Shown here: positions 15,413 to 57,330 of the stretch, piece after piece
Numbering within the stretch: the first letter of the stretch is position 1
Layout: each line of letters begins with the position of its first letter
NCBI GenBank assembly: GCA_040755095.1
Contig: JBFMBH010000005.1
Span: 479-64,478 of the forward strand
DNA: 64,000 bases
From: Thermodesulfobacteriota bacterium
GTDB taxonomy: Bacteria > Desulfobacterota > Desulfobulbia > Desulfobulbales > JBFMBH01
Reading direction: 5' to 3'
Position numbers and translations under genes: made by a program
The notes under the pieces: model-generated
Database searches by the model: none
Seen by the model: the letters and a program-made list of their open reading frames with translations, nothing else
Told to the model about the DNA's origin: nothing

Positions 15413-15476
15413 GCCGCCCTCTCTTTGCGATCCTGCGTTGCCAGTCAACCCGCGCACGGCCAACGTGCCTGCGGCC

Positions 15477-21843: not shown

Positions 21844-21859
21844 ACGAGGACCTGCTGCT

Positions 21860-38719: not shown

Positions 38720-39904
38720 CTACGCGAGATCCTTGTGACAGCCGATGCACAGCTCCTTCTTGGACGGCTTGCGCAGCCGGAATTCAATGCTGGCGCCATG
38801 GTCGGCATGACAGGAGTTGCAGGTGATCCGTCCGTCCTCCAGGGTGTTGTATTCCTCCGGGATGGTCATCCCTTCCCGGGGGTAGACGTTCACAGGATGG
38901 GAGAGGACGTCCTTGGCTTCCTTGTGGCAGGTGTAGCAGATGGTGATGTTGGTCTCGAGCTCACTCCGCAAAGGAGGATGGTCGTCCGGCTTGCTGGCCC
39001 GCGCTCGTGGCTCGGGGGCCGCGGCTGTCCTCACCGGGGGCGGCGCTCCCACGGCCAGGCGCACTGGCTGGTTGGCGGCGAAGCGGACCAGGTAGCGATC
39101 GCCGTTGCGCAGGATGGTGTGCTCAAGCTCGATCACCTCGCTGCCCGCCTCCGCCGCCACCTCGACCGGTGAGACCGAGGTGGCCGTGGAGAGCTCCATG
39201 GCCTGCGATTCGCTCCGATTGCCGAACATGTCCTGGGATGCCACCCGGAAGCTGTATGTGGTCTTGGCCTTGAGGCCGGACAGGAGCACTTCGTGCTTGA
39301 GGCTCAGGTCATTGTCCGTGGGGGACTCGTTGTCCATGGCGCCGACACCGTAGAGCACCCGACTGTCCGCCACCTCGTCGGTGCGCCAGGCAATGGTGGC
39401 CGAGTAGAAGACCCCTCGCCGCACCTCTTTGACCTTGAGATCAGCGATCCGGGGCGGCGTGTGGTCATTGACCAGGGGGGGCAGGTCCTCCAGAGGGGGC
39501 AGGTCGAGCTGCTCGCTCACCAGGCCGCCGTGGCCATTGCTGGCCTTGACATAGAGGACATCGTCCACATCCGCCGGCGGGATCACAAACACATGCTCGG
39601 GCTGCGCCAGACCGCTTTCTCCCAGCCAGCGCAGATTGCGGGGCATGTCCGTGGTGGCGCGGCCCCTGGCGCCCTTGGTAGCGGTCCGGGTGGGGGCCAG
39701 ATGGCAGACGTGGCACTCGCGCCGCAGGAACGGCAGATGGATGAAGGGCTTGGCCAAGCTCTCGTCGCATTCCTGCTTGTGGCATTCGTAGCACGCCTCC
39801 GGGTCGTTGGGATCAGCGGCCGGGGCGCTGTGGGCAGCGGGACCGAGGGCGGCCAGGGCAGCGGCCAGCCCGGTGGCCAGAACGAGGTACTTGGGAGCAG
39901 CCAT
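38720..39904 (-). CDS. Secreted pentahaem cytochrome c with central fibronectin-type-III-like domain
   Basis: Signal peptide MAAPKYLVLATGLAAALAALGPAAHSA. Haem motifs CYECH, CHVCH, CYTCH, CNSCH and CIGCH. The middle segment ...YSATIAWRTDEVADSRVLYG...LLSGLKAKTTYSFRVASQDMFGN is FN3-like. Confidence 0.85.
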   Translation of the reverse strand: MAAPKYLVLATGLAAALAALGPAAHSAPAADPNDPEACYECHKQECDESLAKPFIHLPFLRRECHVCHLAPTRTATKGARGRATTDMPRNLRWLGESGLAQPEHVFVIPPADVDDVLYVKASNGHGGLVSEQLDLPPLEDLPPLVNDHTPPRIADLKVKEVRRGVFYSATIAWRTDEVADSRVLYGVGAMDNESPTDNDLSLKHEVLLSGLKAKTTYSFRVASQDMFGNRSESQAMELSTATSVSPVEVAAEAGSEVIELEHTILRNGDRYLVRFAANQPVRLAVGAPPPVRTAAAPEPRARASKPDDHPPLRSELETNITICYTCHKEAKDVLSHPVNVYPREGMTIPEEYNTLEDGRITCNSCHADHGASIEFRLRKPSKKELCIGCHKDLA

Positions 39905-40269: not shown

Positions 40270-41718
40270 ATGCGCTCCTTCATCCTCCTTCTTGCGTTGG
40301 TGCTTGCTGCCTGTACCCCCGGTCCTGGCAAGCCTGGGCGTCAGGTGCCGCCGGCCGACGCCGCTGGCCTGGCCGTCTATCTCACCGCCTCGGAGCCGCT
40401 GGCCACGGAGGTTTCGTTCGAGCTCAATGGGCTCGCCCTCTTCAATGGCGTCGAATGGCTGCTCCTGGATCCGGGGCCCCAGACGATCAGCGCCCAGGCC
40501 GTGGGGGAGGGTCAGATGCTGTTGGGCTTTTTTGCGGTGCCGCCCGGGGATTACACCCGGCTGCGGGGCACCGTCGGCCCGGCTCGGGTCTCCGAACGGG
40601 GCGACGGCGTCCGCCTGGTGGGCCAGGCCGAGGAGCGGGAGCTGGGCTTTGAGGCCAAGATGCGGCTGGTGGCCGGTCAGCGGGCCTGCCTGCTGGTGGA
40701 CTGGCGGGTGCGCTCGTCTCTCCAGGACAAGGACTGGACCCCGGTCCTGACCGTGACGCCGCAGATGCCGGCCATGACCCGGGAGCTCCTCTATGTGGCC
40801 TGCGACGATATCGACACGGTATTCGTGGTGCGCATGGATACCAACCACGTGGTGGCCGCCTTTGGGGTCCGGGGCGGGCCCACTCAGCTGCGCTACGATG
40901 ACGCCGTGCCCATCCTCTATATACTGGCAAGAGAGACTCGCCTGATCACCGGCCACGACCCCTACGGCAACCGCCAGCTGTCGCGGGCCTTCCTGGGAGG
41001 GCTGCCCGAGCCCCGGTACTGGGATCTGTCCAGGGATGGCCGCTGGGCGTTCGTGACCGACACCGACCAGGCGCTCCTGCAGAAGATCGATGTCACCTCC
41101 GGCTTCGTGGCCCGCCAGCAGTCCTTGAGCCAGCGTCCGGGACGGGTGTTGTTTGTGGCCGAGGCGGAGTCGGGACGGCTGCGCCGGGAGCTGGTGGCGG
41201 TCGCCATGCCCCAGGCCCAGCTGGTGGCCTTCTTCGACCCCGAGACCCTGGAGGTGCTGGAGCCGGCCAGCCTGACGCCGGTCGGTGCCGGCGCCTTGAC
41301 CGGCGTTGACTCGGGCATGGAGCCCGGCCAGATGCTGATGGTGCAGGGCCTCCTCCATGTGGCGGATCGGTTGTCCGGCACCGTGACCATCTACGACCTC
41401 AACCGGGGGCGGCATCTGGCGCGGGTGGCTGTGGGCCTGGAGCCGGTGGCCCTGCTGGCCGGCAAGCAGGACCGCGTCTATGTCAGCCACGCCGGCAGCA
41501 GCAACGTCATGGCCCTGGCCCGGGGCCATCACGCGGTGCTCAAGGATGTGTTCGTGGGGCCGCAGCTGGGGGAGATGGCTCGCCACCTGCGGCGGGGCAG
41601 CCTCTATGTGGCGGTGCAGGGGACCCAGGCCGTGGCGGTCCTGGATCTCAACTCCGACGCCCTGCGGGCGCAGATCCCCTTGCCGGGGCGGCCGGTCTCC
41701 CTGCTGGCCGTCGAATAG
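40270..41718 (+). CDS. Lipoprotein with N-terminal beta-sandwich (DUF4382-like) and YVTN/YncE-like beta-propeller
   Basis: Lipobox LVLAAC. Repeated units such as LYVACDDIDTVFVVRMDTNHVVAAF, RWAFVTDTDQALLQKIDVTSGFV and LYVAVQGTQAVAVLDLNSDAL. Confidence 0.7.
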   Translation: MRSFILLLALVLAACTPGPGKPGRQVPPADAAGLAVYLTASEPLATEVSFELNGLALFNGVEWLLLDPGPQTISAQAVGEGQMLLGFFAVPPGDYTRLRGTVGPARVSERGDGVRLVGQAEERELGFEAKMRLVAGQRACLLVDWRVRSSLQDKDWTPVLTVTPQMPAMTRELLYVACDDIDTVFVVRMDTNHVVAAFGVRGGPTQLRYDDAVPILYILARETRLITGHDPYGNRQLSRAFLGGLPEPRYWDLSRDGRWAFVTDTDQALLQKIDVTSGFVARQQSLSQRPGRVLFVAEAESGRLRRELVAVAMPQAQLVAFFDPETLEVLEPASLTPVGAGALTGVDSGMEPGQMLMVQGLLHVADRLSGTVTIYDLNRGRHLARVAVGLEPVALLAGKQDRVYVSHAGSSNVMALARGHHAVLKDVFVGPQLGEMARHLRRGSLYVAVQGTQAVAVLDLNSDALRAQIPLPGRPVSLLAVE

Positions 41719-41729
41719 GCGGAAAAAGA

Positions 41730-41758
41730 GCGGCCCCCTGGCTGAGCCAGGGGGCCGC
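41730..41758 (-). terminator. Intrinsic terminator downstream of OmcS-like gene 2 (also closes the convergent + strand gene)
   Basis: 13-bp stem GCGGCCCCCTGGC-tga-GCCAGGGGGCCGC. On the minus strand it is followed by TCTTTTTCC. Confidence 0.7.
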
Positions 41759-41838: not shown

Positions 41839-42939
41839 CTAGTCCTTGTTGGTATGACACTTGAAGCAGCCCGAGTCTGCAGCTGCGCCGGCATTGTGGG
41901 CGTTCATGGTGGCGTAGTCCCAGCGGAGCAGGTCGTCGAAGGATGTGCCGTGTGCCCGGTGGCAGGAGATGCAGGTGACGATGGCCTGGCCGGCCACCGC
42001 CGGATTGACCGCTGCGGCCAGGTTGACCACGCCCACCGGCGCCTCGGCGTTGTCGACGTACGCGGCGTACTCGGAGCCGGTGGCGTCGCTCAGGTCGAAG
42101 TCCACCGGATGCCGCAGCCAGGGCGCGCCGAAGGTGGAGTCAACGCCGGTGTTGCCGGTGCCGCTGTGGAAGTTGCCGTGGCACTCGGCGCACAGGAAGC
42201 TGATGGTGCTCTTGTCCACCGAGGCCAGCTCGTCGCTGATCCGGTCCTTGCCCTTGTACTTGTTGCGATCAACGCTGGTCTCGTTCTCCCAGTCGTTGTC
42301 CTCGACGCCGGTGATCCCCATCAGGAAGCGGAAGCTCTTGCCCACGGTGCTGCCGTCGAGGGTGGCATCATCGGCATGGTGGGCGCCGGAGATGTCCTGG
42401 AAGTCGTCCGCTGCCGCATGCTTGCCGTGGCAGCCATAGGAGCCGGCGCAGGTCAGCTGGCTGGCCCAGGAGGCGGCACCGCCCGCCACCTGCGAGCCGC
42501 CGGTGGGGGTGAAGGTGGCGTCGTTGCTCCAGCCGGGGGGCGTCAGGCCAAAGGCCGCGCCATCCTGGGTGGCGATCCCCTTGACGTTGTGGCCCTTCTT
42601 GTCGACATCACCCTGGGCGTCCGCCACCCAGTAGAAGTTGCCGCCGGCCAGCACGCTGGTCACCGGCGAGGGGGCAGCGTCGGTCTTCAGGACCAGGGGG
42701 ATGTTGCTGGAGCCGCCCAGGAGCGCCGTGCCGCTGTGGCAGCCGACGCAGTCGCCCCGGGTCAGGGCCCGTTGCGGGGTGTTTGTGCCGTCATTGGCCA
42801 TGCTGGCGCCGTTCTGGGAGTTGTGCATGGTGTGACAGTCCGAGCAGACGCCGGTGACCCGGGCCTCGGCATTCCCGCTCAAGCCGCAGAATGCCAGCGC
42901 GAAACCGAAGGCAACGATGGAACCATACAGCTTCTTCAT
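41839..42939 (-). CDS. OmcS-like hexahaem cytochrome c, paralogue 2
   Basis: Signal peptide MKKLYGSIVAFGFALAFCGLSGNAEA. Motifs CSDCHTMHNSQ, CVGCH, CAGSYGCH, CAECH, WLRHP, CISCHRAHG and C-terminal GCFKCHTNKD. GAAGGAG RBS before ATG 42939. Confidence 0.85.
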   Translation of the reverse strand: MKKLYGSIVAFGFALAFCGLSGNAEARVTGVCSDCHTMHNSQNGASMANDGTNTPQRALTRGDCVGCHSGTALLGGSSNIPLVLKTDAAPSPVTSVLAGGNFYWVADAQGDVDKKGHNVKGIATQDGAAFGLTPPGWSNDATFTPTGGSQVAGGAASWASQLTCAGSYGCHGKHAAADDFQDISGAHHADDATLDGSTVGKSFRFLMGITGVEDNDWENETSVDRNKYKGKDRISDELASVDKSTISFLCAECHGNFHSGTGNTGVDSTFGAPWLRHPVDFDLSDATGSEYAAYVDNAEAPVGVVNLAAAVNPAVAGQAIVTCISCHRAHGTSFDDLLRWDYATMNAHNAGAAADSGCFKCHTNKD

Positions 42940-43607
42940 GTCAGTGCTCCTTCTTCGAGAAGAGGTGTCGGTGATGCATGACCTGCGATGTTGTTGTTGG
43001 TAAGTCACATCCCTCCCTGTGGTCGCATTATGCTCATTTGGGCCTCATCCCGGTAATGAGCGTACTGTCCATCCCATAATGACCTCCTCATCCCCAAGAG
43101 TTGTCGTTGAGAGCACTCCTTGCTCCAATTATCTCAGATTCCGATCCCTCATTCCATAAGGCAAGTGCTGTATTCTTCTCTGAGCACCTGCTCATCATCC
43201 GTCAGCCGTCTGCTTTGCTGCTACGCGGATCAGTCACTCGGGCTCATGGCGTTGAAACCAGTCCTTGGAATCAGTGTATCATAGCTGCCAAGGGGATTGA
43301 ATGGGATAAGTGTTTATTTTTGCCTAAGCCCATGCTTAGCATGCAGTAAGCCCAGGTGATTTGGCGATGGGCAGTTTTTGGCCATTGTTCAATGTAAAGA
43401 AAACGGTATGGCTTCGGCAAGAGAGCATGTCTTCACCTCTGGCGGGCAGAAGATGAAGCGACTTGACAGATCCGGAGTGGGCGAAGGGGGGAGGAGCGGG
43501 GAATACCCCTCAGACAACGGCGCGTCCAGACGGACCTGGACGCTGCTTCAGGCCCGGTACCGCTTCGAGAAGGGCGAGCTTCTGAGAGGGCGAGGCAGGT
43601 GAAACGC
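42940..43607 (-). promoter_or_regulatory. Long, visibly A+T-enriched non-coding leader/promoter region upstream of OmcS-like gene 2
   Basis: 668 bp without a credible ORF, clearly lower in G+C than the flanks. Possible sigma70-like TTGCCG-N18-TACATT (minus strand, 43391-43420). Nested hairpin ATTAT...GCTCATT-N16-AATGAGC-ATAAT at about 43024-43080. Palindrome CTAAGC-ccat-GCTTAG at 43324-43339. Confidence 0.4.
43522..43543 (-). terminator. Possible terminator after the 12-haem cytochrome gene
   Basis: 8-bp stem GCGTCCAG-N6-CTGGACGC, followed on the minus strand by GCCGTTGTCTG (only a weakly U-rich tail). Confidence 0.4.
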
Positions 43608-44408
43608 CTACATCATCATGGCGTGGGGATCGATATGGCAGGAAAGGCAGTTGGTGGGGTTGGCAATGCTCTTGTCATGGGGATTGCCGTGGCAGGTCAG
43701 GCACTCCGGCAGCAGGTCCGGGCCGTGGCCGAAGCGGTGGCAGAACACGCAGATGAAGGCACCGTGCTTGGTCTTGTTGGTCCGCTGCAGCTCCAGCTGC
43801 TCCGGGTGACAGCCGCCACAGTACGTGGACGGGATGTCCGTTGACCAGGCCACATGGGTCGGCTCATGGGGCTGGTGGCAGCGTAGGCAGGCGCCGTAAT
43901 CCATGCCCTCCACATGGGCCTGGTGGCATTTGAGGCAGGTCTTGAAGGTGCGGTGCACCGGGTGGCAGAAGGAGCAGTCCACCTCGGCATGGGCGCTGGG
44001 GAATTCCTGCATGGCGTCCCCGGGGTAGGGGTGGCAGGACAGGCAGGCCGGCTTGTTGTCGCTATCCTCCCGGAAGGTGATGAGCAGGGGCCGGTGGGGA
44101 TCCTGGTGGCAGGTCAGACACTCGGCCCGGGCGGCGAAGTGCTTGTTGGCAGCGGGCTGGTGGCAACGGGAGCATGCGGGCACCGCGTTCGTGCCCCGGG
44201 GGGGGTGCTCCACGTGGCAGTCCAGGCAGGTGACCCGGGTGCGGTGGCGCTCGCCGTCCTCGAAGATCGCCTTCTGCTGGTCGGGATGGCACTTCTTGCA
44301 GTCGGCGTTGGTCAGGACAGGGGGCTGGGCCCCGGCCTCCAGCACGGCAACCAAGAGACTTGCTGCCAGCACGCCCGCGATACCTGCCCAATAACCTTTG
44401 CTGTCCAC
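43608..44408 (-). CDS. Dodecahaem cytochrome c (12 CxxCH in 266 aa; poly-c7/c3-like)
   Basis: GTG start after GGGAGG. N-terminal hydrophobic segment WAGIAGVLAASLLVAVLEAGA. Twelve CxxCH motifs spaced about 15-25 aa apart. Confidence 0.9.
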   Translation of the reverse strand: MDSKGYWAGIAGVLAASLLVAVLEAGAQPPVLTNADCKKCHPDQQKAIFEDGERHRTRVTCLDCHVEHPPRGTNAVPACSRCHQPAANKHFAARAECLTCHQDPHRPLLITFREDSDNKPACLSCHPYPGDAMQEFPSAHAEVDCSFCHPVHRTFKTCLKCHQAHVEGMDYGACLRCHQPHEPTHVAWSTDIPSTYCGGCHPEQLELQRTNKTKHGAFICVFCHRFGHGPDLLPECLTCHGNPHDKSIANPTNCLSCHIDPHAMMM

Positions 44409-44470: not shown

Positions 44471-45445
44471 CTACTTCTGATGGATCTCGAAAACCTGCAC
44501 GCGCTTGTTGAAGGTGTCAGCGACGATGACCCGGCCGTAGGCGTCCACGCAAACGTCGGACGGGTAGGCCAGCCACCCCCGTCCCGAGCCCTGGCCGCCG
44601 AACTCGAACAGATAGCGTCCCTTCAGGTCGTAGACGTTGACCCCATGCCGCAAATAGTCCGCCACGTAAATGCGGCCGGCCCGGTCGTCCACCGCCACCC
44701 CCCGGGCTCGGGCGAGCTTCCCTGACGAGCCACCCTTCTCGCCGAACCGGAACAGGAAGCGCTCCTCGGCGTCGTAGACATAGACCCTGCCCATGCCCTC
44801 ACTGAGGAGGTAGAGATTCCCTTCCCGGTCGGTGTCCAAGGCGATGATATCCGCCACCTGGCGGCCGCCCCGCACCGTGTCCGTGGGGGCGATGACGTGG
44901 AGAAACCGGCCCTCCCGGTCCAGGACCAGGGCACCCGGATAGTTGCTGCCAGCCATGATGAGGCGGCCTCGGGATCCTTCCACCAGATGGCGGGGGGAGA
45001 ATTCGCTGGCGCCCTCGAAGCCGTCCAGGGTCATTTCCCGCACCTTGATGAAGGCGCCGTCATAGACCTTGATCGCCGGCAGCTCGCCCTGGGCCAGAGG
45101 GCCCCGGCCGGCGTAGAGCAGGCCGTCACCGGTCACCAGCACCGCCGAGGCCCGCCCCAGCTCGCGCCCCTCTCCCAGGGTGAAGGTCGGAAAGTAGTCG
45201 GCTCCGGCATAGAGGGCGATCCGGCCGCCGGCCCCGGAATGCAGGACGTAGAGCTCCTCGGCCTTGCGGTCGTAATGGAGGACCGAGGTGTAGCCCAGGG
45301 CCATGCTGTTGGCATCCACCTCGAGGACCTTGATCACCGCCGTCTCCACATTGGCTGCCGTGGTGGCGGCGGCGCCGGCTGGCTGGGGCCAGAGCGTGGC
45401 CAGGAGCAGGATCAGGAGGAGGACAGGGCTCAGCATGGCGCCCAT
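44471..45445 (-). CDS. Secreted NHL-repeat six-bladed beta-propeller protein
   Basis: Signal peptide MGAMLSPVLLLILLLATLWPQPAGA. NHL units such as ARGVAVDDRAGRIYVADYLRHGVNVYD and YPSDVCVDAYGRVIVADTFNKRVQVFE. No SD-like sequence before either candidate ATG (45445 or 45436). Confidence 0.85.
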   Translation of the reverse strand: MGAMLSPVLLLILLLATLWPQPAGAAATTAANVETAVIKVLEVDANSMALGYTSVLHYDRKAEELYVLHSGAGGRIALYAGADYFPTFTLGEGRELGRASAVLVTGDGLLYAGRGPLAQGELPAIKVYDGAFIKVREMTLDGFEGASEFSPRHLVEGSRGRLIMAGSNYPGALVLDREGRFLHVIAPTDTVRGGRQVADIIALDTDREGNLYLLSEGMGRVYVYDAEERFLFRFGEKGGSSGKLARARGVAVDDRAGRIYVADYLRHGVNVYDLKGRYLFEFGGQGSGRGWLAYPSDVCVDAYGRVIVADTFNKRVQVFEIHQK

Positions 45446-45496: not shown

Positions 45497-45522
45497 AAGG
45501 GCGGCCCGAACGGGCCGCCCTT
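45497..45522 (-). terminator. Intrinsic terminator/attenuator between OmcS-like gene 3 and the downstream NHL gene
   Basis: AAGGGCGGCCC-gttc-GGGCCGCCCTT, followed on the minus strand by CTTGTTTCTT. Confidence 0.7.
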
Positions 45523-45565: not shown

Positions 45566-46675
45566 CTAGTCCTTGTTGGTGTGGCAGCGGAAGCAGCCGG
45601 TGTCGCTGTTGGCGCCGCCGCCGCCGGCGATCATGTTGTCGTAGTTCCAGCGTAGGAGGTCCGCGTTGTCGGAGCCGTGGGCCCGGTGGCAAGAGATGCA
45701 CAGCACGATGCCGTCCGCCGGAGTGGCGGGAAGGGCAGCGGTGCCGCGGGTCGTGGCGCTCAACGGCGCGCCTACCGGAACTTCCTCGTCATAGGCGTTG
45801 GTGCCCGCCGTGCCGTAGGAGGCATAGGAATCCCAGGCCTGGGAGGCGTTGCCGAGCCGGAAATCGGTGGGATGACGCAGCCAGGGAGTGCCCCCGGGGT
45901 CAGCCTGGCGGGTGGTGTTCAGGTTGGTGTTGGCCGAGGCGCCGACGCTGTGGAACAGGCCATGGCATTCGCCGCACAGGTAGCTGATGGTGGTGGTGTC
46001 CTCGTAGCCGGTGATGGTGCCGGATCCCACGGTGGCGCTGTTGCCGTTGATGCCGTCGTAGGCATTGCCGTCCGTGTCGCCGAAGCCCTTGTAGCTGGCC
46101 GAGGACTCCGTGCCGTCGATGCCCGCCAGCAGCCGGAAGCCGACCGCGGTGTCGTTGTGGTGACCGCCGGCGATGGCCACGGTCTCGTTGGCGTAGCTGT
46201 GGTTGCCGTGGCAGCCGAAAGAGCCGGCGCAGGTCAGCCGGTTGGTGCCCCAGCCGGCGGCGTTGGCGGGCAGGCCTGCAGCCACCGCCATGTAACCGGG
46301 TGGGGTATTGGCCAGCACGCCGTCCTGGGCGCCGGTACCGTTGACGTTGTGCTTGGTGTTGTCGGCGTTGGCGCTGTTGATGTAGCCGCCGGGCAGGACT
46401 GTGGCGGTCGAAGCGGCGTCACCCCAGATCGCCGGCGCATCGACGCTGGTCAGCCGGTCGGCGGCGTTGTCCTGCTTGTGGCAGCCGGCACAGGTGTCAA
46501 TGGTGAGCGAGTCGTTGGTGGCGGTGGTGTTGCCCATCACCGTGCCGTTCTGGCTGTTGTGCATGGTGTGGCAGTTGGCGCAGGGGCCGGTGACCTTGGC
46601 ATCGGCGCTGCCACCCAGGCCAGCCAGCACAGCGGCCGCACCGACCGCAATCAGGGTGCCGTACAGCTTCTTCAT
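45566..46675 (-). CDS. OmcS-like hexahaem cytochrome c, paralogue 3
   Basis: Signal peptide MKKLYGTLIAVGAAAVLAGLGGSADA. Motifs CANCHTMHNSQ, CAGCH, CAGSFGCH, CGECH, WLRHP, CISCHRAHGS and C-terminal GCFRCHTNKD. AAGGAGG RBS before ATG 46675. Confidence 0.85.
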   Translation of the reverse strand: MKKLYGTLIAVGAAAVLAGLGGSADAKVTGPCANCHTMHNSQNGTVMGNTTATNDSLTIDTCAGCHKQDNAADRLTSVDAPAIWGDAASTATVLPGGYINSANADNTKHNVNGTGAQDGVLANTPPGYMAVAAGLPANAAGWGTNRLTCAGSFGCHGNHSYANETVAIAGGHHNDTAVGFRLLAGIDGTESSASYKGFGDTDGNAYDGINGNSATVGSGTITGYEDTTTISYLCGECHGLFHSVGASANTNLNTTRQADPGGTPWLRHPTDFRLGNASQAWDSYASYGTAGTNAYDEEVPVGAPLSATTRGTAALPATPADGIVLCISCHRAHGSDNADLLRWNYDNMIAGGGGANSDTGCFRCHTNKD

Positions 46676-46903
46676 GGTCTTGCCTCCTTGTTGTTTCGTT
46701 TTACGGGTTCTTGGGCCAGACTGCGGGACTACAGTTCGGCATCCCAGTCGTGGACTCCGGCCCGATGTCTTGTCTCCGTATGCTGCTCTACTACCCCATT
46801 TGCCATTTGCCTGCAAGGGAATTCGCCCTGCCATTCATGGTCGCCACTGTACGCGATCGGAAAGGGAAAAGATATACGGCGGCTGGCGTATTTTGTTCTG
46901 GCC

Positions 46904-46938: not shown

Positions 46939-47091
46939 CGCCAGGGCTGGCTTGCGCACTGCATTTCGCGGTAGCCGGACCGGGGCAAATATGGTAAGGG
47001 AATGCCCGGATCCAAGGCCCCGGGCCGGTTTTGGCGTCAGGCCAGGGGGGCGACAGCCGAGCGGCCACTCGCTGCTCACAAGGAGATCTCG

Positions 47092-49254
47092 TTGAAGTCC
47101 AGACAGACCTCGGTTGTCGGCCTTCTCGCCATGCTGGGGGCGGCATGCGGGCTTGGCGTTTCCTGGCGCCAGGCCGGGGCCGGGCCGGTGGCCATCAACG
47201 CCACCCTGGACTACTCCGAGACGCGGGGGGACAGGGACAATGACAACGCCTTCCGCCAGACCTTCCAGGTGAGCCTGGCGGATGATATCGCCGTCACCGA
47301 TACCGTAAGCCTCACCCCGGGCTTCCGGCTCAACAACGACTCCAGCGGCGAGCGCAGTGGCGCCTACGCCATCGACCCCAACCTGGGGCTGGCCATGAAT
47401 ACCGACCTGTTCAGCATGAACGGGTCGTACTCCACGACCACCCGCAAGTCCTCGGGGGATCAGCCCAAGACCTTCTCCCAGGCCTGGGACGTCACCTGGG
47501 CCAGCCGCTGGGACCAGCCCTGGCCCTCCTTCCCGGTGCCGGTGCCCTCGGTGCGCGTCGCCTACGGCGGCAACACCACCGAATCCGGGGACGACCTGAC
47601 CGGCCGCAGCTCCTTTGTCACCGGCACGGTGACCGAGGAGTACGACATCTCCATCTTCCAGCTCGCCTACCGCTTTTCCCGGAACATGAACTGGGACGAG
47701 ATCGACGAGATCACCGGCACCAACGACACCCATGATTTCAGTGTCGACGCCAGCGACCGCTATCTGGACGACCGGGTGCAGCTGTCCATGAGCCACCAGA
47801 CCACCCTGGACCGCCGGGTCACCGAATTCAAGGGCGGGGCCGGCAAGGTGATCGAGGAGGGCTTCACGTTGTCGGAGGACGCCTTTGCGGGGCAGGACCC
47901 TCGACCCGCAGAGGAAAATATCTTCATGGACCTCAGCCTCGCCAACGGGCTCGTGAACAGGACGCTCACGGATCGGGTCGTGAACATTCGAGCGGGGGTC
48001 GATACCCCTGGCGCCATTAGCGGGGAGGAGTTCTGGAATATCCTCGTGGAGGTGCCAGCGGCGTTACAGGAGGTCTCCCGCATCTCTCTCTGGCTGGCCG
48101 AGGAGCTTGCGCTGGAGCCGGAAGGTCTGGACACGGAAGGCGACTACAGCTTTGACGTCTACGGGGGCATGACCCAGAATGGTCCCTTCCACCGGCTGAC
48201 GGGGGCGGATGGGCTCGGCGTGTATCAGTCAGGCGTTTTCCCGTCGGCCGGCGGCCTGCCGTTGGGGGGAGGGCTGCGGCCCCGTTTCCTGATCGACCTG
48301 CCCGCTGGGGCGTGGAATGGGGAGAACTTCCTCAAGGTGGTGTGCCGGATTGAGAAGCCAGTCTCCGTGGCGGCCTGGATCAGCGAGGTGACGCTTTCCC
48401 ATGTGCGCACCCTCACCACCGACGACGAGAAGGACGTCAATATCAGCAACACCTACAAGACCGGTCTGACCATGAACGTCGTCCCGGCCATGGACTGGCG
48501 CTTCTCCACCGGCCTGGTGCACACCCTGCGGGAAAGCTCGCCCGGGGGCGAGCGCACGGACCTGACCCACAACATGAACCTGTACTGGACCCCCAACCGT
48601 TATTTCCGGCCAGTGACGGCGTTCAACCGCAGTATCTCCTCGGGGGACGAAGAGGATACCCTGGAGAACCGCTCCTACAGCATGCGGGTGGCCTCCATGC
48701 CCCTGGATGCCCTGTCCACCTCCCTGGGCTTCACCCGCACCGAGGGCTACACCAACCAGGCCCTGGAGACCATCGGGGATGCCCTGTTTCTGAGCCTGGA
48801 CTCCCAGATCCTCCCCGATTTGTCCGCCAGCCTGGCCGCTTCCTCCACCAAGACGACCAACCGGGTCAGCGGTGCCACGGCCTCGGCCATGCAGGTGGAT
48901 CTGACCGGCAACATGCGGGTGACGCCCCGGCTCACGGCGGACGCCACCCTGGAATTCAGCGAGGCGGACGAGGAGCCCTTCGGCTATGGCGCTGCCCTGT
49001 CCTGGCGGCCGACGGATGTTCTGGCCTGCACCTTGGACTACGAAGGGGGCAACGAAAGCACCATCACCTTGTCTCCGGCCGTGCGGCTGAGCCGGGAGCT
49101 GCAGCTGACCGGCTCATTCGTCCACAGTGACGAGGACGATCTGTTGTCCGTGCAGTCCAAATGGCTGCTCAACGAGCTCATGACCCTGGACCTCCGCTAC
49201 CGGTGGCGGGAGGAGGAATGGGCCTGGAACGTGCGCTTGACAGCAGGCCTGTGA
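47092..49254 (+). CDS. Putative outer-membrane beta-barrel protein with a large inserted soluble domain
   Basis: TTG 47092 lies 6 nt after AAGGAG. Signal peptide KSRQTSVVGLLAMLGAACGLGVSW. Both ends are rich in short alternating polar/hydrophobic strands with Asn/Asp/Gly/Ser turns (LDYSETRGDRDNDNAFRQTFQVSL...; ...LTGSFVHSDEDDLLSVQSKWLLNELMTLDLRYRW). No family recognised by eye. Confidence 0.6.
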   Translation: MKSRQTSVVGLLAMLGAACGLGVSWRQAGAGPVAINATLDYSETRGDRDNDNAFRQTFQVSLADDIAVTDTVSLTPGFRLNNDSSGERSGAYAIDPNLGLAMNTDLFSMNGSYSTTTRKSSGDQPKTFSQAWDVTWASRWDQPWPSFPVPVPSVRVAYGGNTTESGDDLTGRSSFVTGTVTEEYDISIFQLAYRFSRNMNWDEIDEITGTNDTHDFSVDASDRYLDDRVQLSMSHQTTLDRRVTEFKGGAGKVIEEGFTLSEDAFAGQDPRPAEENIFMDLSLANGLVNRTLTDRVVNIRAGVDTPGAISGEEFWNILVEVPAALQEVSRISLWLAEELALEPEGLDTEGDYSFDVYGGMTQNGPFHRLTGADGLGVYQSGVFPSAGGLPLGGGLRPRFLIDLPAGAWNGENFLKVVCRIEKPVSVAAWISEVTLSHVRTLTTDDEKDVNISNTYKTGLTMNVVPAMDWRFSTGLVHTLRESSPGGERTDLTHNMNLYWTPNRYFRPVTAFNRSISSGDEEDTLENRSYSMRVASMPLDALSTSLGFTRTEGYTNQALETIGDALFLSLDSQILPDLSASLAASSTKTTNRVSGATASAMQVDLTGNMRVTPRLTADATLEFSEADEEPFGYGAALSWRPTDVLACTLDYEGGNESTITLSPAVRLSRELQLTGSFVHSDEDDLLSVQSKWLLNELMTLDLRYRWREEEWAWNVRLTAGL

Positions 49255-49408
49255 TGTGCTCTACTCGCCCCGAAGTCTGCGCTGCTGCGTCCAGTCCAGG
49301 GCCGGCGGCCACGGATCCGGAACCGATTGTGCTGTGTGGGGCGACGGCATTGGCGGCAGGCGGCCGTGCTCCGGACCGGCGGCATTCTGGCAGAGAGGAC
49401 TTTTCCAT

Positions 49409-50041
49409 ATGGCTGGCTGGTGGCCGATCCGGCGGCAGGTGCGGAAGGCGGGCGGCAGGGGATGGCAGGGGGCCGTGGCGGCTCGCCTGGGGGGACTTCT
49501 GCTGGTGGTCCTGGTGGCCGGTTGCAGCTCCCATGCCCTGACCTATTATGTCCGGGAGGGCGCTGACCTGACCTTCATCAAGAAGGTGGCGGTCATGCCC
49601 CTGGCCAACAACACCAAGGAGAAGTTTGCCGCCGACCGGGTGCGCAACATCGTGCTGACCCAGGTTCTGGTGGACAGCCTGTTCGACGTCACCGAGACTG
49701 GCCAGCTGGAGAAGATCCTGGAGGAGGAGGCCGGCAAGGCGGATGCGCCTCTGGATGAGGCCCTGGCCCGCCGGCTCGGCAAGCGGTTGTCCGTACAGGC
49801 GTTTCTCCTGGGATCGGTGGATGCCTACGACGAGGAGCGCAAGGGCAACTACTCGTATCCCGTCGTTGCCATGACCTTGAAGCTGGTGGATGCCGAGACC
49901 GGTCTCATTCTGTGGCAGGCCAGCGGCTCTTACAGCGGCTACAGCAGCTGGAGCCGCATCCTCGGCACCCAGGGCAGGGATCAGTCGGCGGTGACCTTTC
50001 GTCTCGTGCGGTCGCTTCTGGCCAGTCTCAGCGGCGACTAG
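49409..50041 (+). CDS. Lipoprotein, PelC/CsgG-N/LpoB/DUF799-like alpha/beta fold, paralogue 1
   Basis: Lipobox LVAGC. KKVAVMPLANNT...DSLFDVTE...LGKRLSVQAFLLGSVDAY...VAMTLKLVDAETGLILWQA. Confidence 0.7.
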   Translation: MAGWWPIRRQVRKAGGRGWQGAVAARLGGLLLVVLVAGCSSHALTYYVREGADLTFIKKVAVMPLANNTKEKFAADRVRNIVLTQVLVDSLFDVTETGQLEKILEEEAGKADAPLDEALARRLGKRLSVQAFLLGSVDAYDEERKGNYSYPVVAMTLKLVDAETGLILWQASGSYSGYSSWSRILGTQGRDQSAVTFRLVRSLLASLSGD

Positions 50042-50098
50042 TCTGGCCTTCGCTCCGTGAGGACGCATCGTCCAGCAGGCCTGCCGTCCCACCGCCTC

Positions 50099-51640
50099 AT
50101 GAGCCTCGGCTTCTCCCCCGGTGCCTGGCCCCGCCTCCTGATCCTCCTCTTCCTGCTGGGCCTCCTGCCGGCAGCCCCGGCGCCGGCCGGTGCCGCCAGC
50201 GGCAAGGTGGCGCTTCTGCCCTTCGACGATCTGTCCCGGGGCGCCAATTCGGTGGACCTGGAGATGACCACCCAGGTCGCCGATCTCCTGACGGTGTCCG
50301 GAATCAACGTGGTGGATGCCCAGGCGGTGCGGGCGTATCTCGCGACCAACCGCGTGCGCCACACCGGGATGATCGATCTCTTCAACACCATGGGCATGCG
50401 GGAGGCCCTGGGTGTGGACTGGATCCTTACCGGCACGGTGACCCACCGCCGCCCCGAGCCGCAGCCGGCCCTGGGCCTGTCCCTTCTCCTGGTGGACGCC
50501 CACACCGGCAAGGCCGTCTGGGCCTGGAACGAGAGCCTGGCCGCCACCGAGCTGGTGAAACCCCTGGGAATCGACGCTGTCACCAGTCTGGCCGCGATCA
50601 CCGATCTGGTCCTGGCCCGGGTGCCGTTCCAGTTTCCGGAGCCCGGCGAAGCCCTGGTGGACCTGCCCATTCCGCCATACTCGGTGGAGAGCTTCGATCT
50701 GAGCTCCCGGTTCGTCGCCGGCAATGGCCGGATGGAGTGCCGGGTGGGCTTCCGTTTTGATGAGGAGCCGCCCACCGACGTCTTCCTGAAGCTGGGGGGC
50801 AAGCGCATCAGTCTGGTGTCCATGGCCAAGGAGAGCGGCACCTACTGGGCGAGCTGGCAGGCGCCGGAGGCAGAGGGGCGCTATTCGGTCGCCACGGTTC
50901 TGCGGTGGAAAGGCCGGCGGGAGGAGTCCAAGTTCCTGGCCTCCTACCGGGTGGTGAACGAGCCGCCGACCGTGTCCCTGCGCTTCGGCAACGGCGTGCC
51001 CCTGGGGGATTCCGGCGTCATCGCCTTCCGCTCCTTCCTGAGCATCAGCCCGGTCGTCAACAAGACCGCTCCCGTGGCTTCGTTCCGCATCCAGATCGAA
51101 GACCCGAAGACCGGCGCCTTCCTCATGGACTTCAAAAGCATCGAGAGCCTGCCCGAAGCCATGGTCTGGCGCGGTGCCGGTGATCAGGGGCCTCTGGGCT
51201 CCGGCTACTACCGGCTCATCCTCACCGTCACCGATGTCATGGGCAACGAGATCGCGGATTCGGCGGAGCTGTACCTGGGCAAGAATCAGCCCCGGGTGCT
51301 GCCCGCCATGGAGCGTCTCGAAGACGGGAGGGTTCAGCTCCACCTCATGGCGGTCCCCGATCCCCAGACCGGCGAGATGGAGCCGGTGCCGGTGAAGTAC
51401 TGGCAGCTGCGGGTCACGGATCGGGAGCGCAACTTCCTTCTGGAAGAGGAGGGAGAGACGCTGCCGGCCACCGTCACGCTGGATCCCGGCGCCGAGACGG
51501 TCTTTCTGGTCTCCTACCTGGTGCGGGATGTCCTGGGCAACGAGCGCCACGCCCGCAGCGAGACCGTGGAGCTGCCCGTTACCGGCGGCGGCGAGGACCA
51601 AGACAAGAAGGAGACCGATGTCTGGCATGAGGAGTTCTAG
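50099..51640 (+). CDS. Secreted protein: the same alpha/beta fold (paralogue 2) + three Ig-like/FlgD-Ig-like beta-sandwich domains
   Basis: Signal peptide ...LLILLFLLGLLPAAPAPAGA. GKVALLPFDDLS...GINVVD...LGVDWILTGTVTH...LSLLLVDAHTGKAVWAW. Later MVWRGAGDQGPLGSGYYRLILTVTDVMGNE (FlgD-Ig-like). Confidence 0.7.
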   Translation: MSLGFSPGAWPRLLILLFLLGLLPAAPAPAGAASGKVALLPFDDLSRGANSVDLEMTTQVADLLTVSGINVVDAQAVRAYLATNRVRHTGMIDLFNTMGMREALGVDWILTGTVTHRRPEPQPALGLSLLLVDAHTGKAVWAWNESLAATELVKPLGIDAVTSLAAITDLVLARVPFQFPEPGEALVDLPIPPYSVESFDLSSRFVAGNGRMECRVGFRFDEEPPTDVFLKLGGKRISLVSMAKESGTYWASWQAPEAEGRYSVATVLRWKGRREESKFLASYRVVNEPPTVSLRFGNGVPLGDSGVIAFRSFLSISPVVNKTAPVASFRIQIEDPKTGAFLMDFKSIESLPEAMVWRGAGDQGPLGSGYYRLILTVTDVMGNEIADSAELYLGKNQPRVLPAMERLEDGRVQLHLMAVPDPQTGEMEPVPVKYWQLRVTDRERNFLLEEEGETLPATVTLDPGAETVFLVSYLVRDVLGNERHARSETVELPVTGGGEDQDKKETDVWHEEF

Positions 51641-52304
51641 TTCGGCCAGCACCGGCTGCTGGCCGCCCGGGTCGAAAAGCCGCTCCGGGGGGACCCCTGG
51701 CGGTTCGCATCCAGGTCGGGTACACTGGCTCGTCACCGTTCTTCTGGCGTGTCTCGCCGCCGGCTGCGGCAAGGCCCAGCACAGTCTGGGCCTGGTGGCC
51801 GCGGGGGGGGAGGGGATCTGCCGGGTGGCGGTGCTGCCCTTCCGGGACCAGGGCAAGGTGCCCTTTGGCGGGCACGTGGTCCAGCGGACGTTCACCGCGG
51901 AGCTCATCGCCAGCGGCCGCTTCGATGTAGCCCTGGAGGGTGAGGTGCTGGCCTTTTTCCGGGAGAACCGGCAGCTGCCCCAGGCGACCCTGTCCCGGGA
52001 CTTCTACATCAAGATGGGCCAGACCATGGGCGTGGACGCCATCGTGGCGGGCACGGTGCTCGGCATGAGCGAAGGCTCCGAGGGCCGGGATATGGTGGTG
52101 CCAGAGGTGGCCTTCTCCCTGGAGCTGATCCGGATCCGGGATGGCAAGCCCCTGGTGGTGACCCACCACCACCGTGCCGGGGATGAGTATCGATGGCTCA
52201 TGCACGTCGGGGTGGTGCAGACCATTTCGGAGCTGGTGAGCCGGATGAGCAAGGAGGCGATCGAGGAATGGCGTATCTTGGGCTTCGAGGGTTGTCGGTT
52301 GTGA
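51618..52304 (+). CDS. Lipoprotein, same alpha/beta fold, paralogue 3
   Basis: Lipobox CLAAGC. CRVAVLPFRDQG...SGRFDVAL...MGVDAIVAGTVLGM...AFSLELIRIRDGKPLV. AAGGAG RBS; the start overlaps the upstream stop by 23 nt. Confidence 0.7.
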   Translation: MSGMRSSSSASTGCWPPGSKSRSGGTPGGSHPGRVHWLVTVLLACLAAGCGKAQHSLGLVAAGGEGICRVAVLPFRDQGKVPFGGHVVQRTFTAELIASGRFDVALEGEVLAFFRENRQLPQATLSRDFYIKMGQTMGVDAIVAGTVLGMSEGSEGRDMVVPEVAFSLELIRIRDGKPLVVTHHHRAGDEYRWLMHVGVVQTISELVSRMSKEAIEEWRILGFEGCRL

Positions 52305-53992
52305 AGCGGGCCAGCTTGCTGGGCCTCGTGACGGTGCTGGTGCTCTGGGGCTCCCTGGCACAGGCGGTGTGGCCCTTCGGGGAACGGCACCTCCTGGTTC
52401 TCAATGGCGCCGGGCACAGCAAGGCGGATTTTCTGCAATTCTGGGAGCAGTGGAAGGAAGAGGACAGCCCGGTTCCCGACAGCCCGGATTTCTGGATCGA
52501 CTGGCTGCTGTTTTATCAGGAGGCCGAGCAGATGGAGCTGGGCGATGCCCCGGCGGTGCAGGCCAAGCTGTTCACCTTCCTCAAGGTGCGGGCCCTCATG
52601 CAGCTGCGCCAGGACGAGGTGACCAGCAGGATGGCCGCCGTCGATGAGGAGCGCCTCTGGCAGCGCTATTTGCAGGACGAGGCGCCCCTGTACAAGATCG
52701 AGAGCGTGCTCATCGCCGACCAGGCGGCTGCTGGCCGCTTCGCTGAGCTGGCGCGGGCTGGCCGCCCGTTCGCCGAGGTCGTCACCGATCCCAGCCTCGG
52801 CCTGGCCGAGCCGCCCAAGGTGATCTCGTCGGACTGGCTGCGGAAGAGCAAGGTGCCCGAGACCTACCGGGAGGATCTGGCGAAGGCCGAGCTCGGCTCC
52901 GTGCTCGGTCCCCTGTTCTGGGAGCCCAAGAAGACCTACTACCTGGTGCGGAAGGTAGAGCAGCAGGCTGGCAGCCAAGAGGACTTCCAGAGGATCCGCA
53001 AGGACATCGAGGAGCGGCTCTTCAAGGAGGAGGACGGCCGCCTGACCAGAGACCTCCTGGTCCGTCTGATGAAGGAGTACGAGGTGGTGACCCACGACGA
53101 CCGGATCGAAGCCCTGCCCATGAACGGCGGCTCCCAGGAGCAGCTGAGCGCCGTGGTGGTGGAGATGAAGGGCGGCAGGACGGTCACCGGCGGTGAGCTC
53201 GTGCAGATGGTGATGCGGGATCTGTCCATGCGGATGCGGCCCAATGCCCAGGGCTCTTTCGACATGGTGCATGGCGATTTCAATGACGCCAAGCGCCGGG
53301 TGCTCATGGATTACCTGGGGGCGGAGCTGACGGTTCGGGCCGCCCTGGACCGTCACTATGAGCAGAAGCCGCCCATCAAGGATGTGTTCGATTTTTACCG
53401 CCAGCGGCGCATGATCCTCGAGCTGAAGAACCGGCTGTTCCGCACCCAGGTGGAGGTCAGCGACCAGGAGGCCCAGGCCTTCTACCAGGCCAACCAGCAG
53501 CTGTTCACCCACCCCGCCTCCCTGGAGCTCGCCATCCTGAGCACCCGGGACGAGAAGCTGGCCGATTTCCTGCGCAAGGAGCTTCTCTCGGGCAAGGATT
53601 TCTTCGAGGTGGCCAACCATGTGGTGGCCGGCGGGGTGAATCCGACCAATGTGCTGGTGAGCGATCTCGATCCGGCGATGGTCGAGGCCCTGTCCGGAGT
53701 GGCCGAGGGGGCGCAGGTGGGCCCGGTGAAGATCGGCGAGGATACCCACTTCATCAAGCTTATCCGCCGGCGGGAGTCGGTGGTGCGGCCCTTGGACGAA
53801 GTCAAGCACATGATCACCAGGAAGCTGCACGAGGAGCGGATCCAGGAGAAGGAGGAGGCCTTTCGGCAGAAGCTGCGGGCGGTCTCCAAGATCGAGGTGG
53901 ATGACGGCCAGTGGCAGGAGGTGGTCCGCACCCTGAAGGCCCAGGAGGCGGCCCGGCAACAGGAGAAGGACAAGCCGGCAAAGGGCAGTTGA
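52301..53992 (+). CDS. SurA/PpiD-like periplasmic chaperone with parvulin-type peptidyl-prolyl isomerase domain
   Basis: GTG 52301 overlaps the upstream stop (GTGA); the alternative is ATG 52268. Signal peptide VKRASLLGLVTVLVLWGSLAQA. C-terminal rotamase-like ...FFEVANHV...VSDLDPAMVEALSGVAEGAQVGPVKIGEDTHFIKLIRRR. Confidence 0.75.
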   Translation: MKRASLLGLVTVLVLWGSLAQAVWPFGERHLLVLNGAGHSKADFLQFWEQWKEEDSPVPDSPDFWIDWLLFYQEAEQMELGDAPAVQAKLFTFLKVRALMQLRQDEVTSRMAAVDEERLWQRYLQDEAPLYKIESVLIADQAAAGRFAELARAGRPFAEVVTDPSLGLAEPPKVISSDWLRKSKVPETYREDLAKAELGSVLGPLFWEPKKTYYLVRKVEQQAGSQEDFQRIRKDIEERLFKEEDGRLTRDLLVRLMKEYEVVTHDDRIEALPMNGGSQEQLSAVVVEMKGGRTVTGGELVQMVMRDLSMRMRPNAQGSFDMVHGDFNDAKRRVLMDYLGAELTVRAALDRHYEQKPPIKDVFDFYRQRRMILELKNRLFRTQVEVSDQEAQAFYQANQQLFTHPASLELAILSTRDEKLADFLRKELLSGKDFFEVANHVVAGGVNPTNVLVSDLDPAMVEALSGVAEGAQVGPVKIGEDTHFIKLIRRRESVVRPLDEVKHMITRKLHEERIQEKEEAFRQKLRAVSKIEVDDGQWQEVVRTLKAQEAARQQEKDKPAKGS

Positions 53993-54098
53993 AGGCAGCT
54001 GCGAGCGTCTTGCAGGGAGGGATGGAGCCTCGGCCGGTGGCCTGTGACCTGGGCGAAGGCCGGATCAGGGTACAACCGTTTGCGAAGAGGGACTCTCG

Positions 54099-56123: not shown

Positions 56124-57307
56124 TGCGCGGCTTTTTCCTGATCGTCGTGATGGCGGCCGGCCTCGGCTTCACCCTCGCCGAGGCCCAGGCCGCCCGGACC
56201 AACTGCACGGCCTGCCACGACCCCGAGAGCTTCGCTGGCCGGGTGGTGCATGGCCCGGTGGCGGAGAAGAAATGCTTTTCCTGCCACAGCCCCCACGCCT
56301 CCCGCCATGAAGCCCTGCTCTATGGCAAATCCCCGGAGCTGTGCTTCAGCTGCCACAAGGATATCGACGAGGGGCTGAAGAAGCAGGAGATGCTGCACGG
56401 CCCGGTCCGGCAGGGCAAGTGCGCCGACTGCCACCTGCCGCATGCGGGCAAGGACGATGCCCTGCTCAAGGCCGGGGTACCGGAGTTGTGCTTCGGCTGC
56501 CACAAGGAGGTGGCCGGCCGGGGTGCCCGGCATACCCATGCGCCGTTTGCCCGGGGCCAGTGTCAGGCCTGCCACGTGGCCCACGGCTCCAGCACGGTCG
56601 CCCTGCTCAAGGCCGGGGTGCCGGGGCTGTGCCTGGGCTGCCACAAGGACGAAGGCGCGATCCGCGGCAAGCATTTGGGACGGGCCCTGGCGGGGATGGA
56701 CTGCCTCACCTGCCACAGCGGCCACGGCTCGGACCACAACGCCCTGGTGCGCAACAACCTCCACCCGCCGTTCAAAGACAAGGACTGCGGCACCTGCCAC
56801 AACCGTACCGACAAAGGGGTGGCCCTGTGCTTCGACTGCCACGAAGGCATCCAGAGCTCCTTCAACTACACCCACAACCACATGATGTCGGTGTCCGGGG
56901 TGGACAACATCTGTCTGTCCTGCCACAACGCCCATGCAGCGGACGACAAGAAGATGCTGGCCGGCACCCAGTACGGTGTCTGCAAGCGCTGTCACGCCGA
57001 CACCTTCAAGCGCCGGGAGGGGGCGTTGCACACCCATCCCAACTGGGGGGTCTGCACCAATTGCCATCAGGCCCACGGCTCCAACCAGATCGCCCTCATC
57101 CGGGGGGATGGCAATGGCACCTGTGAGCAGTGCCATGCCACCCAGGGCAAGTTTGTCCACCCCATCGGCGACAAGGTCCGGGATCCCCGTTCCGGCCAAC
57201 CGGTGACCTGTGTCACCTGCCACAATGTCCATGGCACCGCCTTCAAGTACAACCTCCGCCTGTCGGGGGAGAAGGACCTCTGTGTCCAGTGCCACAAGAG
57301 CTACTAG
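56123..57307 (+). CDS. Periplasmic/secreted multihaem cytochrome c with 16 CxxCH motifs
   Basis: Signal peptide MRGFFLIVVMAAGLGFTLAEAQA. Sixteen CxxCH motifs counted. Its ATG overlaps the upstream stop (TGATG). Confidence 0.9.
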   Translation: MRGFFLIVVMAAGLGFTLAEAQAARTNCTACHDPESFAGRVVHGPVAEKKCFSCHSPHASRHEALLYGKSPELCFSCHKDIDEGLKKQEMLHGPVRQGKCADCHLPHAGKDDALLKAGVPELCFGCHKEVAGRGARHTHAPFARGQCQACHVAHGSSTVALLKAGVPGLCLGCHKDEGAIRGKHLGRALAGMDCLTCHSGHGSDHNALVRNNLHPPFKDKDCGTCHNRTDKGVALCFDCHEGIQSSFNYTHNHMMSVSGVDNICLSCHNAHAADDKKMLAGTQYGVCKRCHADTFKRREGALHTHPNWGVCTNCHQAHGSNQIALIRGDGNGTCEQCHATQGKFVHPIGDKVRDPRSGQPVTCVTCHNVHGTAFKYNLRLSGEKDLCVQCHKSY

Positions 57308-57330
57308 CCCCGAGGAAGGAGACTCCGACC

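Follow-up and report, generated by a model that had tools for sequence, protein, structure and literature searches.

We describe the NHL propeller genes in a 64-kb stretch of the genome of a Thermodesulfobacteriota bacterium (contig JBFMBH010000005.1, positions 479 to 64,478), the whole of which, 64,000 nucleotides, we call the window. The gene of interest, at 44471-45445, encodes a secreted NHL-repeat beta-propeller that we name NHL_A; two more such genes, NHL_B and NHL_C, lie elsewhere in the window. All three are standard components of a conserved, modular cluster for extracellular electron transfer of the osc type, after the osc (omcS-companion) operon of Geobacter sulfurreducens. The pairing of NHL propellers with multihaem cytochromes is real but largely known, and the window adds no new principle. 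What we add is a compact example in which three old NHL paralogues, each with its own module, stand side by side. We give about an even chance to the reading that the NHL proteins belong to an osc-type assembly as non-catalytic subunits that dock or anchor particular multihaem cytochromes.

The three NHL genes are as follows.

44471-45445, minus strand: NHL_A, a secreted six-bladed NHL propeller of 324 aa (Pfam NHL, 47.5 bits), the focal gene
15477-17876, minus strand: NHL_B, a secreted NHL propeller of 799 aa fused to InlB-type B-repeat/Ig-like domains (Pfam NHL, 44.9 bits)
57331-58206, plus strand: NHL_C, a secreted NHL propeller of 291 aa (Pfam NHL, 39.4 bits), the last gene of a peptidyl-prolyl isomerase (PPIase)/26-haem/16-haem/propeller core

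All three pass the gathering cut-off of the Pfam NHL family (PF01436, 20 bits), and the window has no other NHL gene. A Sec-type signal peptide can be read at the N-terminus of each of them. The AlphaFold2 model, made for NHL_A only, is a six-bladed fold (pLDDT 94.3, pTM 0.88), which Foldseek matches to the NHL domains of TRIM71, TRIM2 and Thin at E ~1e-14 with target TM values of 0.80-0.83. In an alignment of 45 NHL_A homologues only residues of the repeat motif are invariant, and we find in NHL_A no conserved His, Met or Cys able to ligate a partner haem or a metal. NHL_A, NHL_B and NHL_C are 25-32% identical to one another and represent three old orthogroups.

Each of the three genes is preceded by a multihaem cytochrome gene. 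The cytochrome genes, the one other secreted propeller that takes part in the arrangement and two terminator-like hairpins are listed here.

45566-46678, minus strand: OmcS-like gene 3, 370 aa, with five CxxCH motifs and one C-x5-CH
17935-19038, minus strand: OmcS-like gene 1, with six CxxCH motifs and CANSCH; its start is uncertain, and the reading frame is open to 19455
41839-42942, minus strand: OmcS-like gene 2, 367 aa, 42% identical to gene 3
54099-56123, plus strand: 26-haem cytochrome, conserved across genome loci
56102-57307, plus strand: 16-haem cytochrome, likewise conserved across genome loci
43608-44408, minus strand: small 12-haem cytochrome of 266 aa, the next gene downstream of NHL_A
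7610-15463, minus strand: giant 13-haem protein (~2600 aa) that also has GEVED and DUF7151 domains, the next gene downstream of NHL_B
40270-41718, plus strand: YVTN/YncE-type beta-propeller lipoprotein, OscD-like, 482 aa, with beta_rpt_yvtn and YncE matches and the lipobox LAAC; recurrent in the cluster
45497-45522, minus strand: terminator-like hairpin between OmcS-like gene 3 and NHL_A, 11 pairs, 9 of them G-C, with a T-rich tail (-24.7 kcal/mol, z=-4.4)
41730-41758, minus strand: terminator-like hairpin that follows OmcS-like gene 2, with 13 pairs (12 G-C)

Always on the same strand, OmcS-like gene 3 lies upstream of NHL_A with a gap of 120 bp, OmcS-like gene 1 upstream of NHL_B with a gap of 58 bp, and the 16-haem gene upstream of NHL_C with a gap of 23 bp; the 26-haem gene precedes the 16-haem gene and overlaps it. 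The YVTN propeller is convergent with OmcS-like gene 2. A preliminary description of the window had reported a secreted NHL gene directly downstream of a multihaem cytochrome three times over, a fourth propeller of YVTN type facing OmcS-like gene 2, and no CxxCH in any propeller. Its coordinates all hold, signal peptides and NHL repeats are present in the three NHL proteins, the fourth propeller does carry YVTN/YncE repeats, and reading the sequences of NHL_A, NHL_B, NHL_C and the YVTN protein for CxxCH finds none.

When gene order and strand are permuted, three NHL genes out of three with a same-strand cytochrome gene directly upstream is an infrequent outcome (p≈4e-4), while the same permutation gives p≈0.03 for any NHL/cytochrome adjacency in the window. 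Two of the three NHL genes also have a cytochrome gene directly downstream (the 12-haem gene for NHL_A, the 13-haem gene for NHL_B), so the direction "cytochrome then NHL" is partly arbitrary. The hairpin after OmcS-like gene 3 makes NHL_A and the 12-haem gene the tighter unit. The two hairpins suggest an abundant structural subunit with accessory genes behind it that are expressed at a lower level.

The comparative evidence comes from two samples. For the forward sample, at least 536 OmcS-like stretches are available with one genome per species; we took 80 loci and searched them as six-frame open reading frames with the window proteins. For the reverse sample, we anchored 80 metagenome loci on NHL_A homologues, which avoids anchoring on cytochromes; 70 of these are evaluable, 39 of them on both sides.

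Checked across the genome loci, OmcS-family and NHL genes do co-occur, as the preliminary description had led one to expect. NHL genes are present in 53 of the 80 OmcS-anchored loci, 57 genes in total, and 49 of the 56 that are not cut by a contig end have a multihaem gene directly upstream. The recurrent order of the cluster is 750-aa protein, lipoprotein, 527-aa protein, 258-aa protein, PPIase, 26-haem, 16-haem, NHL_C, OmcS-like, YVTN, one or more OmcS-like genes and a 5-haem/FN3 cytochrome. The 16-haem gene is followed by NHL_C in 21 genome loci. NHL_A follows a 10-haem gene in 15 and an OmcS-like gene in 12, and the order NHL_A then 12-haem recurs in L021, L028, L068, L097, L098, L101, L103, L104 and others. 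For NHL_B there is one genome locus with OmcS-like, NHL_B and giant cytochrome in a row (L067, from a Thermodesulfovibrionia metagenome-assembled genome), where the NHL_B homologue has the same neighbours as in the window. The layouts closest to the window are the Thermodesulfobacteria-type loci L013, L021 and L068. NHL/cytochrome pairing is kept across Thermodesulfobacteriota, Nitrospirota and other phyla, with identical triplets recurring across phyla at 33-43% protein identity. In look-ups of individual NHL homologues, distant ones from Anaeromyxobacteraceae included, seven out of seven adjoin multihaem genes, and five of the seven loci also have a PPIase gene.

The NHL-anchored survey gives a similar picture from the other side. 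Another component of the cluster is present in 62 of the 70 evaluable loci (89%), and a gene with at least 4 haem motifs lies within 5 kb in 30 of the 39 loci evaluable on both sides. Upstream of NHL_A an OmcS-like gene is the commonest neighbour (19/54); downstream it is most often the YVTN gene (23/55) or a multihaem gene (17/55). By these counts membership in the cluster is the conserved feature, and the strict order of cytochrome then NHL is frequent and not obligatory.

The protein identities, the fold, the secretion signals, the conservation of gene order and the division into orthogroups are observed or computed above; from them we infer physical binding and an anchoring role. One face of the propeller would bind its cognate multihaem cytochrome, and the propeller would hold that cytochrome in place relative to the cell wall, an outer-membrane module or the cell surface, an arrangement that would assemble and stabilise the route of electrons to the OmcS-like filament. 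NHL_C would serve the 26-haem/16-haem/PPIase core. NHL_A would serve the 10-haem and 12-haem cytochromes beside the OmcS-like and YVTN genes, with a SPOR domain tying it to peptidoglycan in some lineages. NHL_B, with its Ig-like domains, would serve the giant surface cytochrome.

Domain fusions and distances bear on this reading. Many NHL_A homologues (P0131, P0147 and about 25 others) have at the C-terminus a SPOR domain, which binds peptidoglycan, and this points to a periplasmic, wall-tethered location of NHL_A homologues. The SPOR fusions are confined to Desulfuromonadaceae-type homologues, where the NHL-SPOR gene opens a cluster that continues with a small multihaem gene, a 700-aa gene, a lipoprotein gene and onwards (for example L092 287-1594 and L093 4346-6046). 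NHL_B types have arrays of Ig-like, BACON and B-repeat domains, as surface proteins typically do, and the giant cytochrome is next in order. In a mirror-tree comparison, NHL_C distances correlate with those of the PPIase, 26-haem and 16-haem proteins at r=0.91-0.94 and with those of the adjacent OmcS-like protein at r=0.73; in partial correlations the 16-haem protein reaches 0.45 and the OmcS-like protein 0.11.

Several observations weigh against docking and anchoring. Of the 39 NHL_A loci evaluable on both sides, 24 (62%) have a gene with four or more haem motifs next to NHL_A, which is frequent and not universal. SPOR occurs in a subset of the homologues only and is absent from the window's proteins, and in the long (430-540 aa) Desulfurivibrio-type NHL_A homologues that follow 10-haem genes, where one would expect it, Pfam found no SPOR. 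The mirror-tree signal is weak because it comes from 15 related loci with shared ancestry.

A more specific version of the docking reading, which we put forward tentatively as possible, though not probable, takes the NHL orthogroups for compartment-specific adaptors that fix multihaem "cables" from periplasm to surface. NHL_A would hold the small 10-haem and 12-haem cytochromes at the peptidoglycan (by SPOR in some lineages), NHL_C the periplasm-spanning 16-haem and 26-haem pair, and NHL_B the giant surface cytochrome. If true, such adaptors would supply the structural connection, so far missing, between inner-membrane electron donors and OmcS-type filaments. In extracellular electron transfer it is an open problem how cytochrome nanowires, and cytochromes that span the periplasm, are put together and held in place, and NHL propellers are among the most conserved cluster parts still without a function. 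The comparative data narrow the question to each NHL protein and its own cytochrome module, beyond OmcS, and the SPOR fusions suggest a wall-anchoring role.

The alternative that survives best gives the NHL propellers a dedicated partnership with the OmcS-like filament, as a polymerisation chaperone, a cap, or a controller of length or bundling. OmcS-like genes precede NHL_A in the 12 genome loci and 19 of 54 metagenome loci given above, the Geobacter NHL gene is directly upstream of omcS, and the NHL-repeat protein GSU2505 has been suggested as necessary for OmcS assembly or expression (PMC9070056). Yet NHL_A stands behind a 10-haem gene no less often (15 versus 12), is often found without an OmcS-like neighbour and has the YVTN gene or a 12-haem gene as its most frequent follower; NHL_C co-varies more closely with the 16-haem/26-haem/PPIase core than with the OmcS-like gene; and OmcS-like gene 3 and NHL_A have a strong terminator-like hairpin between them. 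Where OmcS-like genes are absent, more distant NHL homologues are paired with MtrC/MtrF-like cytochromes and PPIases. In the literature (PMC13194489, citing Shen et al. 2025), the morphology role belongs to the YVTN-type OscD and not to an NHL protein. The existence of three orthogroups, each tied to its own module, speaks against a specific partnership with OmcS. The preliminary description had argued for a dedicated partner role (chaperone, scaffold, anchoring or filament-length control) rather than chance: the part about chance stands, by the permutation result and the conservation across phyla, while the dedicated OmcS partnership is not supported by the orthogroups, the co-variation of NHL_C, the 10-haem counts and the hairpin. 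We regard that partnership as unlikely, and less likely than docking or anchoring.

Two other functions can be set against docking and anchoring. In one, the NHL propellers work at the surface as adhesins or bind minerals, fastening the cell or its cytochromes to solid electron acceptors or partner cells. The Ig-like, BACON and B-repeat arrays of NHL_B and its L067 homologue go in this direction, which fits NHL_B at best, and the literature suggests adhesion for Gmet_0556 and nanocrystal binding for NHL proteins generally. The SPOR fusions, in contrast, put NHL_A homologues at the peptidoglycan, Skennerton et al. predict the four proteins of the PPIase/cytochrome/propeller core to be periplasmic (PMC5539420), and a fixed pairing with periplasmic 16-haem and 26-haem cytochromes is ill-suited to a surface adhesin; we consider adhesins quite improbable. 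In the other, the propellers are enzymes, similar to a lyase, a lactonase or an arylesterase, that modify or mature the cytochromes or a cofactor. Some homologues have weak Pfam matches to Arylesterase, SGL and strictosidine-synthase-like families, and a peptidyl-alpha-hydroxyglycine lyase stands at rank 18 of the structural matches, but the best sequence and structure matches are the binding-type NHL domains of TRIM71, TRIM2, Thin and Brat, and the invariant residues of the 45 homologues are the structural motif of the repeat, with no conserved His cluster or obvious metal site. An enzymatic role thus seems very doubtful. Chance or neutral hitch-hiking, with no functional link between NHL and cytochrome genes, is hardly credible: islands rich in cytochrome genes are expected to have some adjacency of this kind (p≈0.03 for any), but the strict pattern (p≈4e-4), the same triplets across phyla at 33-43% protein identity and cluster membership in 89% of evaluable NHL_A-anchored loci contradict it.

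The name OmcS-like for the filament-type cytochromes is correct despite an identity of only ~25% to Geobacter OmcS, OmcT and OscC. As a single query against the PDB, OmcS-like gene 3 finds OmcS at E=0.15 only, and a family profile is needed: with 35 members, it matches PDB OmcS 6ef8 at E=3.3e-22 over profile positions 28-339, nearly the full length. OmcS is recognised by six CxxCH motifs, and genes 2 and 3 have exactly five. Where OmcS has CSSCH, these two genes and all 120 best database homologues have an invariant C-x5-CHG in the motif CAGS[YF]GCHG, which, judging from the sequences, looks like a conserved non-canonical third haem-binding motif. OmcS-like gene 1 has a normal CQGCH at the third-motif position and the extra CANSCH, a C-x3-CH. 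Genes of the OmcS-like subfamily are also seen on contigs binned to Ca. Methanoperedens, an archaeon (L058), and to Chloroflexota/Anaerolineales (L009, L056); these could be horizontal transfers or binning errors. In the giant protein all 13 haem motifs are within the first 700 residues, followed by the GEVED and DUF7151 domains. In one genome locus (L072, 18182-21103) a single open reading frame with 39 CxxCH replaces the 26-haem and 16-haem genes, an apparent fusion.

The remaining genes of the cluster in the window are these.

38720-39904, minus strand: 5-haem cytochrome of 394 aa with an FN3/Ig-like domain in its centre, a recurrent end gene of the cluster
47002-49254, plus strand: 750-aa protein with no Pfam match, first gene of a conserved five-gene module that ends with the PpiC-type isomerase, in the position of the Geobacter 718-aa gene
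49256-50041, plus strand: LpoB/CsgG/GNA1162-like lipoprotein, E=2.8e-13 to the Geobacter gene in the matching position
50057-51640, plus strand: 527-aa secreted protein with no Pfam match, a conserved cluster member
51528-52304, plus strand: conserved cluster member of ~200-258 aa with no Pfam match; its start is uncertain
52193-53992, plus strand: PpiC-type peptidyl-prolyl isomerase, OscH-like (Rotamase_2, 62.6 bits)

The G+C content of the window is 67%, and we called genes by codon-position G+C and then by homology. The window's proteins, that of OmcS-like gene 3 among them, are 100% identical to those of a 67-kb contig from a Thermodesulfobacteriota metagenome-assembled genome. The cytochrome genes form two islands. 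In the first, on the minus strand, the order is OmcS-like gene 1, NHL_B and the giant 13-haem protein. The second has a minus-strand half with OmcS-like gene 3, NHL_A, the 12-haem cytochrome and OmcS-like gene 2, past which come the convergent YVTN lipoprotein (plus strand) and the 5-haem FN3-type cytochrome (minus strand). Its plus-strand half diverges from gene 3 and runs through the 750-aa protein, the LpoB-like lipoprotein, the 527-aa protein, the ~258-aa protein and the PpiC prolyl isomerase to the 26-haem cytochrome, the 16-haem cytochrome and NHL_C. The first island is flanked on both sides (2629-7585 and 20824-25496) by PF04392 ABC-type substrate-binding proteins, dCache/HAMP/PAS sensor histidine kinases and a response regulator, and these proteins may regulate the cytochrome genes locally. 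At the edge of the window there is a fragment of a WD40 propeller gene (2-910, plus strand), cut by the edge and followed by a PP2C phosphatase gene (923-1747, plus strand). This is an unrelated type of propeller and has no cytochrome neighbour.

Between 38.7 and 58.2 kb the window is homologous to the Geobacter osc cluster. For this operon in G. sulfurreducens (Shen et al. 2025, Cell Chem Biol, as summarised in PMC13194489), it is proposed that OscH acts in folding, OscEFG in secretion and OscD in nanowire morphology, and two long periplasmic cytochromes are named oscI and oscJ. We recovered the Geobacter locus (L091) with the PDB OmcS sequence. Its order is an NHL-like gene of 315 aa, omcS, omcT, a spermine-synthase-like gene, an OmcS-like gene, a YncE propeller, a 718-aa gene and an LpoB-like lipoprotein. 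The window shares with it OmcS-family paralogues, a YVTN/YncE propeller, a large protein without a Pfam match followed by an LpoB-like lipoprotein, a prolyl isomerase, two long cytochromes and an NHL gene that adjoins an OmcS-family gene. The counterparts of OscH, OscI and OscJ are the Rotamase_2 PPIase, the 26-haem and the 16-haem proteins, with the equivalence to GSU2496-2494 taken from the literature. Among the candidates for the channel-like OscEFG genes, the LpoB-like lipoprotein matches Geobacter by sequence, while the 750-aa and 718-aa proteins correspond by position only; the 750-aa protein has no Pfam family, no sequence match to the 718-aa protein and no clear C-terminal beta-barrel signature.

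Two propellers connect the loci directly, and the preliminary description had rightly pointed to both. The NHL gene near omcS is GSU2505, the neighbour of omcS in G. sulfurreducens, which has been proposed as a requirement for OmcS assembly or expression (PMC9070056). In L091, the 315-aa secreted NHL protein, encoded directly upstream of omcS, is a homologue of NHL_A (E=4e-20, 26% identity), whereas NHL_A in the window is downstream of an OmcS-like gene. The beta-propeller tied to nanowire morphology is OscD, which is reported to affect it (PMC13194489, citing Shen et al. 2025). Geobacter OscD (L091, 17193-18671) and the window YVTN protein are weak homologues (E=9e-7), both lipoproteins of ~480-490 aa. 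They differ in that the lipobox of OscD is followed by CSGCH (LACSGCH), whereas neither the window YVTN protein nor its homologues in the 80 genome loci have a CxxCH. The other differences from osc are in the window's third haem motif (C-x5-CH), in its extra modules (NHL_A with the 12-haem cytochrome, NHL_B with the giant cytochrome), in the split of the cluster into divergent halves and in OscB, which is spermine-synthase-like in L091 and for which we found no counterpart among the window genes scanned.

The second known system is the core operon of Skennerton et al. 2017 (PMC5539420) from sulfate reducers that are partners of ANME. It consists of a PPIase, a 26-haem cytochrome, a 16-haem cytochrome and a six-bladed propeller, all with signal peptides, and is spread over Desulfuromonadales, Desulfofervidus, Thermodesulfobacteria and Anaeromyxobacter. 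That report also notes that further small-cytochrome and propeller genes surround the core, and assigns no function. Positions 52193-58206 of the window match the core gene for gene, signal peptides included, with no substantive difference, and this gene order is seen in 21 of the genome loci.

Other likenesses we draw by description. In Desulfovibrio ferrophilus IS5, NHL-repeat propellers are among multihaem cytochrome genes and are co-expressed with them (Deng et al. 2018, PMC5815863; PMC9769857), and NHL propellers have been proposed as sites of protein interaction that stabilise outer-membrane cytochrome complexes (PMC5815863); the host is of a different lineage. The Uet cluster of Tenderiales and Gallionella has the NHL propellers UetH and UetI beside an undecahaem cytochrome, triheme cytochromes, a PPIase and a beta-barrel. 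Its cytochromes differ from those of the window, there is no OmcS-family subunit, and the proposed role is electron uptake. NHL propellers are found in a Geoalkalibacter locus as well. The minimal OmcE nanowire cluster (bioRxiv 10.1101/2025.10.22.684050) has the same overall kit as the window, with two multihaem cytochromes, two beta-propeller lipoproteins, a filament subunit and a large beta-barrel, but the filament subunit, the tetrahaem OmcE, is unrelated, and the propellers are lipoproteins where the window NHL proteins have plain signal peptides. With the reports on GSU2505, D. ferrophilus, Uet, osc and the Skennerton core, the association of NHL propellers and multihaem cytochromes is already on record.

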